Source of the DNA: Anas platyrhynchos
Lineage: Eukaryota
Length of the DNA stretch: 64,000 bases
Direction of reading: 5' to 3'
NCBI RefSeq assembly: GCF_047663525.1
Contig: NC_092617.1
Coordinates: 5,639,550-5,703,549 of the forward strand
The position numbers were made by a program, and so were the translations under genes. How positions within the stretch are numbered: the stretch's first letter is position 1; each line of letters opens with the position of its first letter. The notes under the pieces are model-generated. The model was not told the origin of the DNA. It did not search any database and saw nothing but the letters and a program-made list of their open reading frames with translations. Of this stretch, positions 39,130 to 52,581 are shown piece after piece.

Positions 39130-39179
39130 GGCCTGGGGGGGGTGATGAGGTCGTCAGTGAGGTCATCAGTGAGGTCATC

Positions 39180-41340
39180 AAGTCGTTAGGGGAGGCATCA
39201 GGTCGGCAGGGAGGTCATTGGGGCGTTAGGGGGGGAATTAGGGGGGTTATTGGGGCCTTAGGGGGGGTATTTGGGTCGTTAGGGGGGTAACTGGGACATT
39301 AGGGGGGGAATTGGGGGGGTAATTGGGGCATTAGGGGGGTAATTGGGGCGTTAAGGGGGTATTTAGGTCGTTAGGGGGGTCATTGGGGGGGAATTAGGGG
39401 GGTAATAAGGGCATTAGGGGGGTTATTGGGTCATTAGGGGGGACATTAGGGGGGTGGTGAGGTTATTGGGGGGGCATTAGGGGGATAATTGGGGCGTTAG
39501 GGGGGTAATTAGGGGGGTAATTGGGTCATTAGGGGGGTAACTGGGGTGTTAAGGGGGTAATTGGGGCATTGGGGGGGCATTAGGGGGGTAATTGGGGCGT
39601 TAGGGGGGTAATTAGGGCATTAGGGGGGGAATTAGGGGGGAATTGGGGCCTTAAGGGGGGTGTTAGGGGGGTAATTGGGGGATTAGGGGGGTTATTGGGG
39701 TGTTAGGGGGGTAATTGGGGCATTGGGGGGGAATTAGGGGGGAATTGGGGCCTTACGGGGGGGATTAGGGGGGTAATTGGGGGGAATAAGGGGGGTAATT
39801 GGGGCGTTAGGGGGGAATTGGGGAGTTAGGGGGGTAATTAGGGGGGTAATTGGGGCCTTAGGGGGGCATTAGGGGGGTAATTGGGGTGTTAAGGGGGTAT
39901 TTGGGTCATTAAAGGGGGGTTAGGGGGTTAATTGGGGAATTAGGGGGCTAATTGGGTCCTTAGGGGGTAAATTAGGGGGGTAATTGGGGGGTTAGGGGGG
40001 TGATTGGGGCCTTAGGGAGGTAATTAGGGCATTAGGGGGGGAATTAGGGGGGAATTGGGGCCTTACGGGGGGCATTAGGGGGGTTATTGGGGGGAATTAG
40101 GGGGGTAATTGGGTCGTTAGGGGGGTAATTGGGGCATTAGGGGGGGAATTAGGGGGTAATTGGGTCATTAGGGGGGTAACTGGGGTGTTAAGGGGGTAAT
40201 TGGGGCATTAGGGGGGTAATTGGGGCGTTAGGGGGGTAATTAGGGCATTAGGGGGGGAATTAGGGGGGTAATTGGGTCGTTAGGGGGGTAACTGGGGTGT
40301 TAAGGGGGTAATTGGGGCATTAGGGGGGGCATTAGGGGGGTAATTGGGGCGTTAGGGGGGTAATTAGGGCATTAGGGGGGGAATTAGGGGGGGAATTGGG
40401 GCCTTAAGGGGGGTGTTAAGGGGGTAATTGGGGACTTAGGGAGGAAATTAGGGGGGTAATTAGGGCATTAGGGGGGTAATTGGGGCGTTAGGGGGGGAAT
40501 TAGGGGGTAATTGGGGTGTTATGGGGGGAATTGGGGAGTTAAGGGAAGCATTAGGGGAGTAATTGGGGAATTAGGGGGGTATTTGGGTCGTTGGGGGGGC
40601 ATTGGGGGCAAATTAGGGGGGTAATCGGGTCATGAGGGGGGTAATTGGGGCATTAGGGGGGCATCAGGGGGGTAACTGGGGTGTTAGGGGGTAATTGGGG
40701 ACTTAGGGGGGGCATAAGGTCACTAGGGAGGTTATTAGGGTGGTAATTAGGGGGTAATTGGGGCATTAGGGGGGTAATTGGGGCATTAGGGGGGGCATTA
40801 GGGGGGTAACTGGGGCGTTGGGGGGTAATTGGGGGATTAGGGGGGGAATTGGGGCATTACAGGGGTAATTAGAGGGATAATTTGGGGATTAGGAGGGTTA
40901 TTGGGGGGAATTAGGGGGGTTATTGGGTCATTAGGGGGGTAATTAGGTCGTTAGGGGGATAATTAGGGGGGTAATTAGGGGATTAGGGGGGTAATTGGGG
41001 CGTTAGGGAGGTAATTAGGTCGTTAGGGGGATAATTAGGGGGGTAATTAGGGGATTAGGGGGGTTATTGGGGGGGATTAGGGGGGTAATTGGGGCGTTAG
41101 GGAGGTAATTAGGTCGTTAGGGGGATAATTAGGGGGGTAATTAGGGCGTTGGGGGGCATCAGTGACGTCATCAGGGGGGTGGTGAGGTCATCAGTGAGGT
41201 CATCAAGTCGTTAGGGGGGTCATTAGGGGGGTAATTGGGTAATTAGGGGGGTAACTGGGTAATTAGGGGGGTAATTGGGTCATTAGGGGGGTAATTAGGG
41301 CATTAGGGGGCTAATTAGGGCCTTAGGGAGGTCATTAGGG
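39180..41340. repeat. 22-bp minisatellite GGGGGGTAATTGGGGCATTAGG (~95 units) in the HNRNPC 5' intron/flank
   Basis: Direct reading. Confidence 0.9.
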
Positions 41341-41470
41341 AGGGGAGGGGGCGGAGCCAACAGGAAAGGGGGCGGGGCTAAAGGAAAAGGGGGCGGGGCC
41401 AAAGGGAAAGGGGCGGGGCCAAAGAGGGCGGGGCCAAAAGGGCTTGGGCTGGGGGCGGGGCTCGTTACCG
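41340..41470 (-). promoter_or_regulatory. HNRNPC: GC-box cluster (five GGGGCGGGGC[CT]AAAGG units); a minus-strand GTAACG donor-like site at ~41466; candidate alternative HNRNPC 5' exon or promoter
   Basis: Motifs only. Confidence 0.3.
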
Positions 41471-42640
41471 GCGCTCATTAGCACCACTAATTAGGGCTGG
41501 GGGGGCTAATTAGGGTTGGGGGCTACTAATTAGGGCTGGGGGGACGCTAATTAGGGCTGAGAGCTGCTAATTAGGGCTGGGGGGGCTCTAATTAGGGTTG
41601 GGGGCCACTAATTAGGGCCTAATTAGGTCCCCTGGGTCGTTAAGGAGGCTAATTACTCGCACTAATTAAATCCCAGAGCTCCAACACCATTGGTTAATGA
41701 GCCTAAGGGGTCGTTAATTAGGGTTGGGGGGTAATGAGGGGTGGCTAATTAGCGTTCTATGCTAATGAGGGAGTGCTAATTACTCTCATATGCTAATGAG
41801 GTAACAGTAACCAACATTGTATGCTAATGAAGGGTGTTAATTACCATCGTGTGCTAATGAGGGGCTGCTAATTAGGCTTGAATGCTAATGAGGGGTGCCC
41901 CAATCAGCCTTGTATGCTAATGAGGGAGTGCTAATTACTGCCATGTGTTAATGATGGGCTGTTAATTACCCTTGTATGTTAATTAGGTGGGCTCTTCCTA
42001 CCTATATATACTAATGAGGGGTCATTAATTAGCTTTACATGCTAATTAGGGAGTCGTAATTAGCATTATGTGCTAATGAGGCACATTTATATCCACTGAA
42101 TGCTAATGAGGGGCTGCTAATTACCCTCATATACTAATTAGGGCGATAATACTTGGCATTATATGATAATTAGGTTCTTAATTACCACTGCGGGCTAATT
42201 ACCCTTAATTAGGAGTCATTAATCACCAACGTATGCTAATAAGGTGATGATAATTACTATTAAATGCTAATTGGTGGTGTTAATTACTTCTTCGTGCTAA
42301 TGAGGGGCAGTTAATTACCCTCATATGCTAATTAGGGGGGGTAATGATTGGCATTATATGCTAATTAGGGTTTTAATTACCACTGCGGGCTAATTACCCT
42401 TAATTAGGGGGGTCATTAATCACCATTGTATACTAATTAGGTGATCACAATTACCATTAACTGCTAATTGGTGATGTTAATTACTGCTCCGTGCTAATAA
42501 GGGGCTGTTAATTACCCTCATATGCTAATTAGGGGGGGAATAATTGGCATTATATGCTAATGAGGGGTCGCTAATTACCTTCATATGCTAATGAGGGGGT
42601 AATATTTGGAGGGGGGGTGGTCTTTTAACGAACTCACCTG
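41470..42640. repeat. TAATTA-rich ~58-bp array (ATGCTAATGAGG...GCTAATTACC...), same family as 28150..29540
   Basis: Direct reading. Confidence 0.8.
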
Positions 42641-42649
42641 GGGGGAGGG

Positions 42650-50640: not shown

Positions 50641-50799
50641 GGTCCCCTCGGCGCTCGGAGCCTTCCCCTGCAAAAGAAACGGGGCCGGGAAAAGGGGGGG
50701 TGGGGGGGGGGTGAGGGGGGGGGGGTTGGGGCTCCAAAAATTTAAGGGGGGGGGTCAAAAACCGAGGGGGGAGGGGCCGGGCCCCGCCCCCAGCCAGGC

Positions 50800-51620
50800 C
50801 CGCCCCCTTTCTCCTCACAGAGCCCCCCCCCCCCCCCCCCCCAAACAGGCCTCAGCGGCCTTATCGCGGCCCTGTCGCGCTCCTATCGCGACGTACCCCA
50901 CTTTTAACCCCCCCCCCTCTCCTTTTAACCCCCCCCCCTCTCTTTTTAACCCCCCCCCCGGGCTCTTTTCCCGCTTTCCCCCCTCAGCTTCAGCCCCGGC
51001 CCCTCAGCGCCTCTCCCCTCCCCCCCCCCCACCCCCCCCCCAACCCCATCCCTCCCCCTTTTTGGCGAATAAAAACCCAAAACTCCTCAGATTTGACCCA
51101 AAATCGTTTCGGGACCTTCCCTAAAACCCCCCCCGGCCCCCTCAGCGGCGGCCTCACCCCTGGGCCCCGCCGCTCCGCCGCCGCCGCCGCCGCCGCCTGC
51201 TCACAAAATGGCGCCCGCGCCGCCCTCTGCGCCGCTCCGGCCGGGAGCCCGCGGCCCCGCCCCTTTTCTCCTCAGGACGCGCGGCGATTGGAGGAGGGAG
51301 GCGTCAATCACGACGCTGGCCAATGGGAGGCGAGGAGGGGAGGGAGCGCGGGGAGAAGCGCGGGAGGAGGGATAAGGGGGGATGAGACTGCGGTGGGGGC
51401 GGAGCGCGGATTGGGCGGCGCGGGTGTCCGTCAAGAGGAGGAGCCAATAGGGAAAGGGGGCGGGAGGGGAGGGCCCGCCTCTTGGCTCGGAGGGTTGAGG
51501 CAGCGGGAGGGCGGGGCTTCGGCGGAGAGCGCGCTGTGATTGGTTGGCGCCTCAGGAACGCCGCGATGCGATTGGCTGGCGGCGCTGTCACTCCCTCCCT
51601 CACTCCCTCAGGCGCCCCCA
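50800..51620. promoter_or_regulatory. Orphan CpG island with a cluster of five CCAAT/ATTGG (NF-Y type) boxes (gattggagg ~51289, ggccaatggg ~51321, agccaatagg ~51443, tgattggttgg ~51537, cgattggctgg ~51568), a GCCGCC run and a YY1-like CAAAATGGCGCC (~51206)
   Basis: Motifs read directly; no conserved coding exon recognised nearby. Confidence 0.4.
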
Positions 51621-52459
51621 CCCCCCCCCCAAATGTCCCAAAAGAAGCACTTTTCACCCCAAAAAGTTACAAAAAAACACCACTTTGCTTTTATTGGAAA
51701 AGACCGAAGGGCTACCGGCTACGGCCAAAGTGAGGAGGGGGGGGTTGGGGGGCCAAAAAAAAAAAAAAACGTAAAATAAAAAATAAATATTTATCCTCCT
51801 GTGAGGCAGGGGGATAAATAAGGCGGAATCGGGGTTTTTGGGGTGTTTTTTTTGGGGTGCCCCCCTTAAATTTTTTAGGGACCCCCCCCCCGTATTGTCC
51901 CAGCGCGTTTTGGGCCCGTCTGAGGAGCTTTTTGGGGTCCCCCACCCCAAATTGATCCGTTTTGAGGGGGGACGCAGATTTTGGGGTGAATTCGGGGGAT
52001 TTTGGGGTCCCCCCTAACTCTATGGCTTTTTGGGGACCTCCCCCTGCACGTCGGGGGGGCTCGGCCCCGGTTTTGGGGTCGTTAACCCCAATTTTGGGGC
52101 TGTTTTGGGCTCCCTTTGGGGTCGGCGGCCGCCATTTTGTGCCGCCCGCGCCCCATTTTTGAGGCTTTCTTTGCCCAAATTTTGGGGTTTTCGAGCCCAA
52201 ATGTGGGGTTTTCGAGCCCAAATTTTCACAATTTGGGGATTTCGGACCCTATATCTCCTCCCCTTAAAAAAAAGGGCGACCCCCACCCCAAAAAAAAAAG
52301 ACAAAAAACCCCAACCCCGCCACGCCTTGGTCCGGCCCCCGCCCCCCCCAAAAAAAACCCCCCCCCGAACCCCCCAAAAAACCCCAAAAACCCAGGAAAT
52401 CGGGGGCAAAAAACGAGTCCGTGAAGGATTTTTGGGGGGAATTTGGGTCCCCCCAACCC

Positions 52460-52581
52460 TTACTTCCTCTTCTTTTTTGGGGGCCCCCCGCTGCGGGCGC
52501 CGTGGCGGCCGTGCCCGGGAGCCTTCCTCTTGCGGCTGCGCCCGTGCTCCTCTTCCTCCTCGTACTGGCTCTCGCGGTCGG
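52460..52581 (-). CDS. SUPT16H: SUPT16H terminal exon ([40 protein letters not shown]), stop TAA at plus 52462..52460
   Basis: Acceptor ccccaaaaaag; matches human ADRESRYEEEEEQS..SAPPKKKRK*. Confidence 0.92.

Follow-up and report, generated by a model that had tools for sequence, protein, structure and literature searches.

A minisatellite-rich interval between HNRNPC and SUPT16H in Anas platyrhynchos: probable promoter and 5′ untranslated exons of HNRNPC, and absence of RPGRIP1

HNRNPC and SUPT16H are neighbours on the minus strand of a 64-kb stretch of the Anas platyrhynchos genome – NCBI RefSeq assembly GCF_047663525.1, contig NC_092617.1, positions 5,639,550 to 5,703,549 – which is referred to here as the window, and the interval between their coding regions (39130-52460) is the subject of this report. 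The human order at 14q11.2, which we take to be HNRNPC(-) RPGRIP1(+) SUPT16H(-) CHD8(-), places RPGRIP1 between the two. RPGRIP1 is the gene of Leber congenital amaurosis type 6 and anchors RPGR at the photoreceptor connecting cilium; mammals and zebrafish need it to form outer segments, and its loss blinds mammals. An original prediction, made from the letters of the window, held that the duck interval has no RPGRIP1-like gene and consists of satellite plus orphan CpG islands.

The HNRNPC coding region, located by tblastn with human HNRNPC, runs on the minus strand from an ATG at 39129 to a last coding exon at 25439-25356; its first coding exon (38890..39132, acceptor CCCCCCCCAG/GCC) matches human amino acids 1-80 at 95%. 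The 3′ third of SUPT16H, also on the minus strand, extends from the window edge to a TAA stop at 52462-52460 within the terminal coding exon (52460..52583), as located by tblastn with human SUPT16H and by direct reading, the C-terminal ...PPKKKRK and its stop being legible in the window letters. Both human queries were validated by their strong colinear matches. The two coding regions lie 13.3 kb apart, as predicted (about 13 kb). The third gene, TTC5, is on the plus strand downstream of HNRNPC, with open reading frames (ORFs) in unique islands at 11.6-22.4 kb.

Tandem arrays recognized by Tandem Repeats Finder (TRF) make up ~76% of the interval and fall into four large blocks. All four are head-to-tail minisatellites with units of 10-100 bp in 20-240 copies, and unique 11-mers cover only ~2 kb of the gap between the coding regions; for the window as a whole, more than 80% is tandem repeat and ~10 kb has unique 11-mers. 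We conclude, with a probability of roughly 85%, that 39130-52460 consists of the HNRNPC promoter, three short exons of the HNRNPC 5′ untranslated region (5′UTR) and satellite-filled introns, that reading it as intergenic is wrong, and that RPGRIP1 is absent.

The 5′ end of HNRNPC

A pigeon HNRNPC mRNA contig (L006, coding sequence 199-1107) carries a 5′UTR of 198 nt, and its first 64 nt (GGGCGGCGCGGGCGCCATTTTGCGAGCAG...GGCGGCGGCGG...) match the window minus strand at 51225-51170 with 92-97% identity. Emu, both alligators, chickadee, blackbird and parrot carry the same exon 1/promoter element upstream of their HNRNPC genes. In a six-species promoter alignment the block GCGCAGAGGGCGGCGCGGGCGCCATTTTGTGAGCAG is almost invariant, the GGGCGCCATTTTG core is invariant, the exon 1 donor GGTGAG is the same in all six species, and the upstream ATTGG/CCAAT boxes are conserved, with the proximal boxes at -62 and -95 kept across birds and alligator. 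Because of the match to the pigeon mRNA 5′ end and these conserved alignment features, the 50800-51620 island is read from its sequence as the conserved HNRNPC promoter and non-coding exon 1. The putative core and proximal promoter is the CpG island segment at 51226..51640 (minus strand), placed by alignment with chickadee, blackbird, emu and two alligators. Exon 1, with the YY1-like GCGCCATTTTGTGAGCAG and a donor GT at 51157-51156, occupies 51158..51225 on the minus strand according to the pigeon mRNA, the six-species alignment and a spliced alignment; transcription may in fact begin slightly further upstream, a few bases beyond 51225.

The promoter has six CCAAT/ATTGG pentamers at 51287-51575 (-62, -95, -185, -219, -314 and -346 from 51225); the cluster had been predicted, with five boxes rather than six. 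The pentamer count is by itself ordinary for the window, in which satellites reach 16 per 415 bp, and the -62 and -95 boxes stand in both orientations at classical distances from the start. The promoter is TATA-less, with a GC box directly upstream of the start; exon 1 contains GGCGGC repeats and, shortly after the start, a YY1-like GCCATTTTG, complementary to the YY1 core AAnATGGC. This architecture – CpG island, NF-Y boxes and YY1-type element – is ordinary for a housekeeping gene; use of this start in the window species and binding of NF-Y and YY1 are predicted. The YY1-type motif AARATGGCGGC occurs nine times in the window against 0.1 expected; it is also found at 1347 and 52128, and there are two minus-strand clusters, one upstream of TTC5 (3835-4159) and one between the 3′ ends of TTC5 and HNRNPC (23956-24916), which look like motif-bearing minisatellites.

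Exon 2 (47814..47844, minus strand) is a 31-nt 5′UTR exon with acceptor TCCCTTGCAG and donor ACA/GTAAGT at 47813-47808, defined by L006 and by a second bird mRNA, L007; acceptor, donor and exon body are conserved in chickadee and blackbird. In L007 (Logan SRR9650686 contig, 2030 nt) exon 2 is joined directly to the ATG exon and exon 3 is skipped. The same contig joins HNRNPC mRNA to antisense TTC5 exons, which suggests a 3′ overlap between the convergent HNRNPC and TTC5 transcripts of that bird, unless the contig was assembled as a chimera. Exon 3 (~87 nt, ~42882..42968, minus strand, 5′ boundary approximate) was placed by its similarity to nt 98-175 of the pigeon mRNA; its donor CCACG/GTAAGAGG at 42881 is kept in chickadee and blackbird, and the exon 3/4 junction is set by a pigeon contig that retains the intron (L011). 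Exon 3 is probably alternatively included. In a spliced alignment, exons 1, 2 and 3 of the pigeon mRNA align to the window in order.

Two other assignments were considered for these blocks and rejected after the mRNA and multi-species alignments. The 42650-43080 block had originally been taken for the HNRNPC promoter; it contains exon 3, with its conserved donor, which abuts five tandem GC boxes (GGGGCGGGGC, 42957-43050), and a similar CCACGGACACC motif is carried by alligator. The segment 48038-48094 was discarded as a candidate for exon 2. As for the two donor-like sites predicted in the GC-rich block at 47580-48240, the minus-strand GTAAGT is the exon 2 donor, and the plus-strand GTGAGT lies at 48082-48087 rather than ~48073.

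The GC-rich blocks qualify as CpG islands (at least 200 bp, GC above 0.5, observed/expected CpG above 0.6), with GC and observed/expected values of 0.73 and 0.87 at 51100-51640, 0.71 and 0.76 at 50800-51620, 0.62 and 0.69 at 47580-48240, and 0.71 and 0.76 at 42650-43080. All three blocks coincide with the HNRNPC promoter or its 5′UTR exons, and none is an orphan. The satellite half of the original description thus stands and its orphan islands do not; the further suggestion that the islands mark non-coding or unannotated transcripts finds no support, since the mRNA match and splice sites assign them to HNRNPC.

The three 5′UTR introns hold essentially all of the satellite DNA of the interval. 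All are on the minus strand and are delimited by the exon boundaries and TRF: intron 1 (47845..51157, 3.3 kb) is mostly a GGGGGGTTAGAGGGGGAATT-type minisatellite at 48243-50642, intron 2 (42969..47813, 4.8 kb) contains a CTTTTTGGCCT-type minisatellite at 44509-47487 and an A/T-rich array at 43166-44260, and intron 3 (39133..42881, 3.7 kb) contains GGGG..TAATT/GCTAATTAG-type minisatellites at 39146-42600. The 5′UTR region spans 12.1 kb in the window compared with 4.4 kb in chickadee, whose HNRNPC 5′UTR intron contains a similar GCTAATTAG array. On the plus strand, which is the HNRNPC template, the large arrays of introns 1 and 3 have a strong excess of G (GC skew up to +0.97), so the pre-mRNA is C-rich across both. 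The intron 2 array, unlike these, is T/C-rich on the plus strand. A 341-amino-acid gene call upstream of chickadee HNRNPC (L004 8529-9969) was set aside as likely spurious: it has no Pfam match and its ORF runs through a GGTCCCAGGTGGATTTGGGG minisatellite in the 5′UTR intron. Satellite related to this chickadee repeat is present in the window at ~9.3-10.2, 12.9-13.4 and 20.3-21.3 kb.

Transcription of HNRNPC would thus start at about 51225 on the minus strand, from a CpG island with CCAAT boxes, a GC box and the exon-1 GCCATTTTG, and yield a pre-mRNA whose three 5′UTR introns (3.3, 4.8 and 3.7 kb) are inflated by minisatellite arrays. Splicing would then join exon 1 (51225-51158), exon 2 (47844-47814), an optional exon 3 (~42968-42882) and the ATG exon (39132 onwards).

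Intron 1 also contains a conserved non-coding element (48000..48094, minus strand; CCTGACTCA...CTCCCTTCTCCTTCCGCAG/GGGCAGCGAGGC in HNRNPC sense), which is 82-86% identical to its syntenic counterparts in emu and alligator. Read in HNRNPC sense it has a polypyrimidine tract and an AG followed by GGGCAGCGAGGC; the opposite strand carries TGAGTCA, an AP-1-type motif to which the plus-strand GTGAGT at 48082-48087 belongs. Judged by these motifs, the element may be either an AP-1-like site or the acceptor of an alternative 5′UTR exon, and we prefer neither.

SUPT16H, RPGRIP1 and synteny across birds and alligator

The SUPT16H stop is separated from HNRNPC exon 1 by 1.2 kb of unique, non-repetitive sequence, in which the only canonical minus-strand poly(A) signal is an AATAAA at 51695-51690 with a U/GU-rich stretch after it. 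In chickadee, too, a single AATAAA stands in comparable surroundings (L004 4276). SUPT16H probably ends at the 51695-51690 signal, and the motif scan therefore suggests a SUPT16H 3′UTR of ~0.8 kb (51670..52459, minus strand, ~790 nt, to a presumed cleavage site), leaving ~0.45 kb before the HNRNPC start. The SUPT16H transcript would end there with the HNRNPC promoter ~0.45 kb beyond, and the true intergenic spacer would be the CCAAT-box promoter itself; the predicted 13-kb separation would then hold for the coding regions and not for the transcripts, since the HNRNPC start at ~51225 is only ~0.45 kb from the likely SUPT16H poly(A) site. The AATAAA-containing A-rich stretch of the original prediction is present on the plus strand at ~51753-51795, antisense inside the probable SUPT16H 3′UTR.

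The prediction that no RPGRIP1 lies between HNRNPC and SUPT16H is borne out by several searches. The human RPGRIP1 query was checked (full-length matches to Pfam PF11618/PF18111, and a C-terminal 190 amino acids 100% identical to PDB 4QAM_B); with it, tblastn at permissive settings gave nothing in the 64-kb window better than E=0.2, and that outside the interval, and the emu and alligator proteins gave no window match. A profile hidden Markov model (HMM) was built from human and ten non-mammalian sequences (nine sauropsid, one coelacanth) and run with all filters off, in six frames, on every stop-to-stop ORF of at least 10 amino acids. It gave no match at E<=10 across the 64-kb window, and in the same run it matched the emu and alligator loci at 1e-43 to 1e-81. 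Neither domain of the protein is found: the C2-C2_1 domain (PF11618) is missing from the window by HMM, by tblastn with the human, emu and alligator proteins and by a Pfam scan of ORFs from the unique blocks, and the C-terminal RPGR-interacting domain (PF18111, RPGR1_C) is missing by these searches as well, at E<=10 by the HMM, which covers it (emu locus L008 matches HMM positions 1052-1259, within this domain). The absence of RPGRIP1 is solid for the whole 64 kb.

The emu order is HNRNPC(-), a GPR4-like G-protein-coupled receptor (GPCR) gene(-), RPGRIP1(+), SUPT16H(-) and then a gene of 2411 amino acids that is probably CHD8; emu RPGRIP1 is a compact 5-kb gene encoding both domains. In alligator the GPCR and RPGRIP1 are upstream of HNRNPC, with RPGRIP1 divergent from it. 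SUPT16H is directly upstream of HNRNPC in chickadee, blackbird and parrot, and the window order TTC5/HNRNPC/SUPT16H is that of chickadee and blackbird, which marks the window as of neognath type. An RPGRIP1 on the opposite strand between HNRNPC and SUPT16H is thus found in emu and not in the window, chickadee, blackbird or parrot, and the HMM had no match in the chickadee, blackbird and parrot loci or in the 10 kb upstream of cuckoo HNRNPC. Absence from this position in the lineage, as originally proposed, therefore extends from the window to chickadee, blackbird and parrot, and in cuckoo covers the 10 kb ahead of HNRNPC, with the gene present in emu and alligator. The HNRNPC start and SUPT16H stop are 9.2 kb apart in emu and 1.2 kb apart in the window; the SUPT16H stop is 2.3 kb from HNRNPC exon 1 in chickadee.

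The receptor gene is intronless and GPR4/GPR68-like, of the proton-sensing family (emu L001 4317-5393 and L008 7297-8373; alligator L002 5612-6529 and L003 4781-5668). In emu and alligator its place is between the HNRNPC promoter and RPGRIP1; the window and the passerine loci lack it, and it was apparently lost together with RPGRIP1. A single deletion of ~8 kb (on the emu scale) would remove RPGRIP1 and the GPCR and spare the HNRNPC promoter and the SUPT16H 3′UTR. One deletion that left both flanking genes intact is the simplest account, and we infer that RPGRIP1 was lost by deletion and did not move.

Among birds, an emu RPGRIP1 query against 5.8 billion proteins retrieved only emu, rhea and ostrich, and turtles, squamates and crocodilians came next at 40-49% identity. 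When 1.84 billion cluster representatives were scanned with HMMER without filters, the best 150 added no other bird RPGRIP1; those emu-like representatives that could be named were palaeognaths, reptiles, amphibians or fish, including snake, turtle, caecilians, frog, sturgeon, bichir and gar. The human RPGRIP1 protein gave mammals only among the 120 matches listed and is uninformative for birds. The palaeognath proteins (emu P0261, ostrich P0262, rhea P0266) share 64-69% mutual identity over partial lengths and 48% with turtle, the rhea model being flagged as low quality; so unusual a divergence may be due to fast evolution or relaxed constraint, or else to flaws in the gene models.

Absence of RPGRIP1 in birds has been on record since 2014. 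The supplement of Lovell et al. 2014 (Genome Biol 15:565, Tables S1/S8B) lists the gene as missing in birds and present in crocodilians, and by a cross-reference in that supplement Zhang et al. 2014 flags it as a loss or pseudogene; the missing list in these tables also includes TTC5, and SUPT16H is hard to place there. TTC5 and SUPT16H are both present in the window, and since the list contains TTC5 it is not by itself decisive for RPGRIP1. As emu, rhea and ostrich keep RPGRIP1, 'missing in birds' is also too broad. In the literature we found no main-text discussion of RPGRIP1 loss in birds or chicken, the Lovell supplement being the only listing. The additions made here are modestly new: contiguous, breakpoint-level evidence of positional absence, and retention in palaeognaths, which points to a neognath-specific loss. 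We favour, with moderate confidence, a true loss of RPGRIP1 in neognaths by one clean deletion that also took the GPR4-like receptor and came after the split from palaeognaths, whose own copy looks intact.

Exon copies and other features of the window

Fragments of HNRNPC coding exons are repeated within the HNRNPC introns among the satellites, at 37153-37070, 34317-34269, 38174-38153, 31315-31286, 31676-31647 and 26578-26539. They have 85-100% nucleotide identity to bird HNRNPC mRNA and seem to be exon pieces swept into the repeat arrays. Within 56980-58137 (SUPT16H intron and exon, minus strand) the 5′ part of the SUPT16H exon for amino acids 831-858 has two further copies, at 58091-58008 and 57505-57422, besides the real exon at 57147-56980; all three encode identical amino acids (100%) and lie in direct repeats of 130-242 nt spaced by 358 and 586 bp. 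The copies could be pseudo-exons, a real local duplication or an assembly artefact.

The best protein matches to window HNRNPC come from sauropsids, with 91% for emu, kiwi, ostrich, alligator and turtles and 88-89% for passerines. No Rfam family matched the 64-kb window at gathering thresholds, and an explanation of the locus as a host for small nucleolar RNAs or microRNAs was dropped on that account; a Pfam scan of ten ORFs, the most complex in the unique blocks, found no domain.

Alternative explanations and known systems

Several observations weigh against assigning the whole interval to HNRNPC. The supporting mRNAs are from pigeon and one other bird, the latter 92% identical to the window HNRNPC coding sequence, and the 5′ end of L007 is unlike exon 1 beyond its last ~12 nt. 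The 5′ boundary of exon 3 is uncertain and L007 lacks this exon, the GC-box array beside it could be an alternative or secondary promoter at most, and the conserved 48000-48094 element is unexplained by the HNRNPC model. On the other side of the promoter, the SUPT16H 3′UTR has no nucleotide conservation to passerines and its poly(A) site is placed by motif logic alone. The unassigned element, the YY1-type AAAATGGCG that can be read on the plus strand at 51207, and the frequent bidirectionality of CpG-island promoters would also fit a separate non-coding transcript, such as a divergent or antisense long non-coding RNA, with a promoter or exon in the 50.8-51.6 kb island or the 47.6-48.2 kb block. 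HNRNPC, however, accounts for the mRNA match and all of the donors and acceptors, plus-strand RNA from the island would run antisense into the SUPT16H 3′UTR, and no Rfam family, domain-bearing ORF or transcript evidence was found for such an RNA; we regard this additional transcript as improbable.

Where RPGRIP1 itself is concerned, the gene might have been relocated, for example to another GC-rich, repeat-laden microchromosome region, and be unannotated in neognaths. Many genes called missing in birds have merely been hidden; TTC5, on the 2014 list, and SUPT16H, hard to place in it, are both in the window. Our searches covered protein collections and single loci, the protein search using a word prefilter. 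But the emu query that retrieves only three palaeognaths among birds reaches turtles and squamates at 42-49%, the scan of 1.84 billion representatives has no neognath RPGRIP1 among its best 150, the 2014 studies also class the gene as lost or a pseudogene, and the neighbouring GPCR has vanished too, as one deletion predicts. Relocation is thus unlikely, if slightly less so than the extra transcript. Far more remote is an assembly artefact in which RPGRIP1 was collapsed or dropped, as might be feared where more than 80% of the window is tandem repeat and partial exon copies in the introns betray a structurally messy region: in three independent neognath assemblies (chickadee, blackbird and parrot) SUPT16H is the immediate upstream neighbour of HNRNPC, with short gaps, and the 1.2 kb between the SUPT16H stop and HNRNPC exon 1 in the window is unique sequence, with no array there to hide a gene.

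Assignment of the interval to HNRNPC bears on annotation, in that satellite-inflated UTR introns in bird microchromosomes can move a promoter to a distance of 12 kb from the start codon, so that it seems to be an orphan; the interval should be labelled as HNRNPC promoter, 5′UTR exons and introns, and the intergenic and orphan-island label dropped. The positional evidence argues that the long-listed absence of RPGRIP1 is a real deletion at the ancestral site rather than an assembly gap, and narrows it to neognaths. If this is true, the sharpest-sighted vertebrates build photoreceptor cilia without RPGRIP1, presumably through RPGRIP1L or a rewired RPGR anchor, and how neognath photoreceptors function without it becomes a directly testable question.

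Compared with the avian missing genes listed in the Lovell et al. 2014 supplement, which was built from fragmentary assemblies, the window leads to the same conclusion on RPGRIP1; it differs from that list in having a contiguous syntenic site at which the absence is positional, and in the retention of the gene by the palaeognaths emu, rhea and ostrich. With the human and ancestral amniote arrangement, to which the emu order conforms, the window shares HNRNPC and SUPT16H as neighbours on the same strand, but RPGRIP1 and the GPCR of emu and alligator are gone, the SUPT16H 3′UTR abuts the HNRNPC promoter, and TTC5 lies downstream of HNRNPC. The promoter resembles housekeeping CpG-island promoters with CCAAT (NF-Y), YY1 and GC boxes in its TATA-less island, its CCAAT boxes at -62 and -95 and its YY1-type element near the start, although relative to housekeeping YY1 promoters the motif reads AAAATGGCG on the strand opposite HNRNPC and its binding is predicted. 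Complete chicken assemblies contain GC-rich, repeat-rich microchromosome ('dot chromosome') genes with satellite-packed introns, and the window resembles these in its short conserved exons, introns of minisatellites with 10-50-bp units, and strong G/C strand asymmetry.

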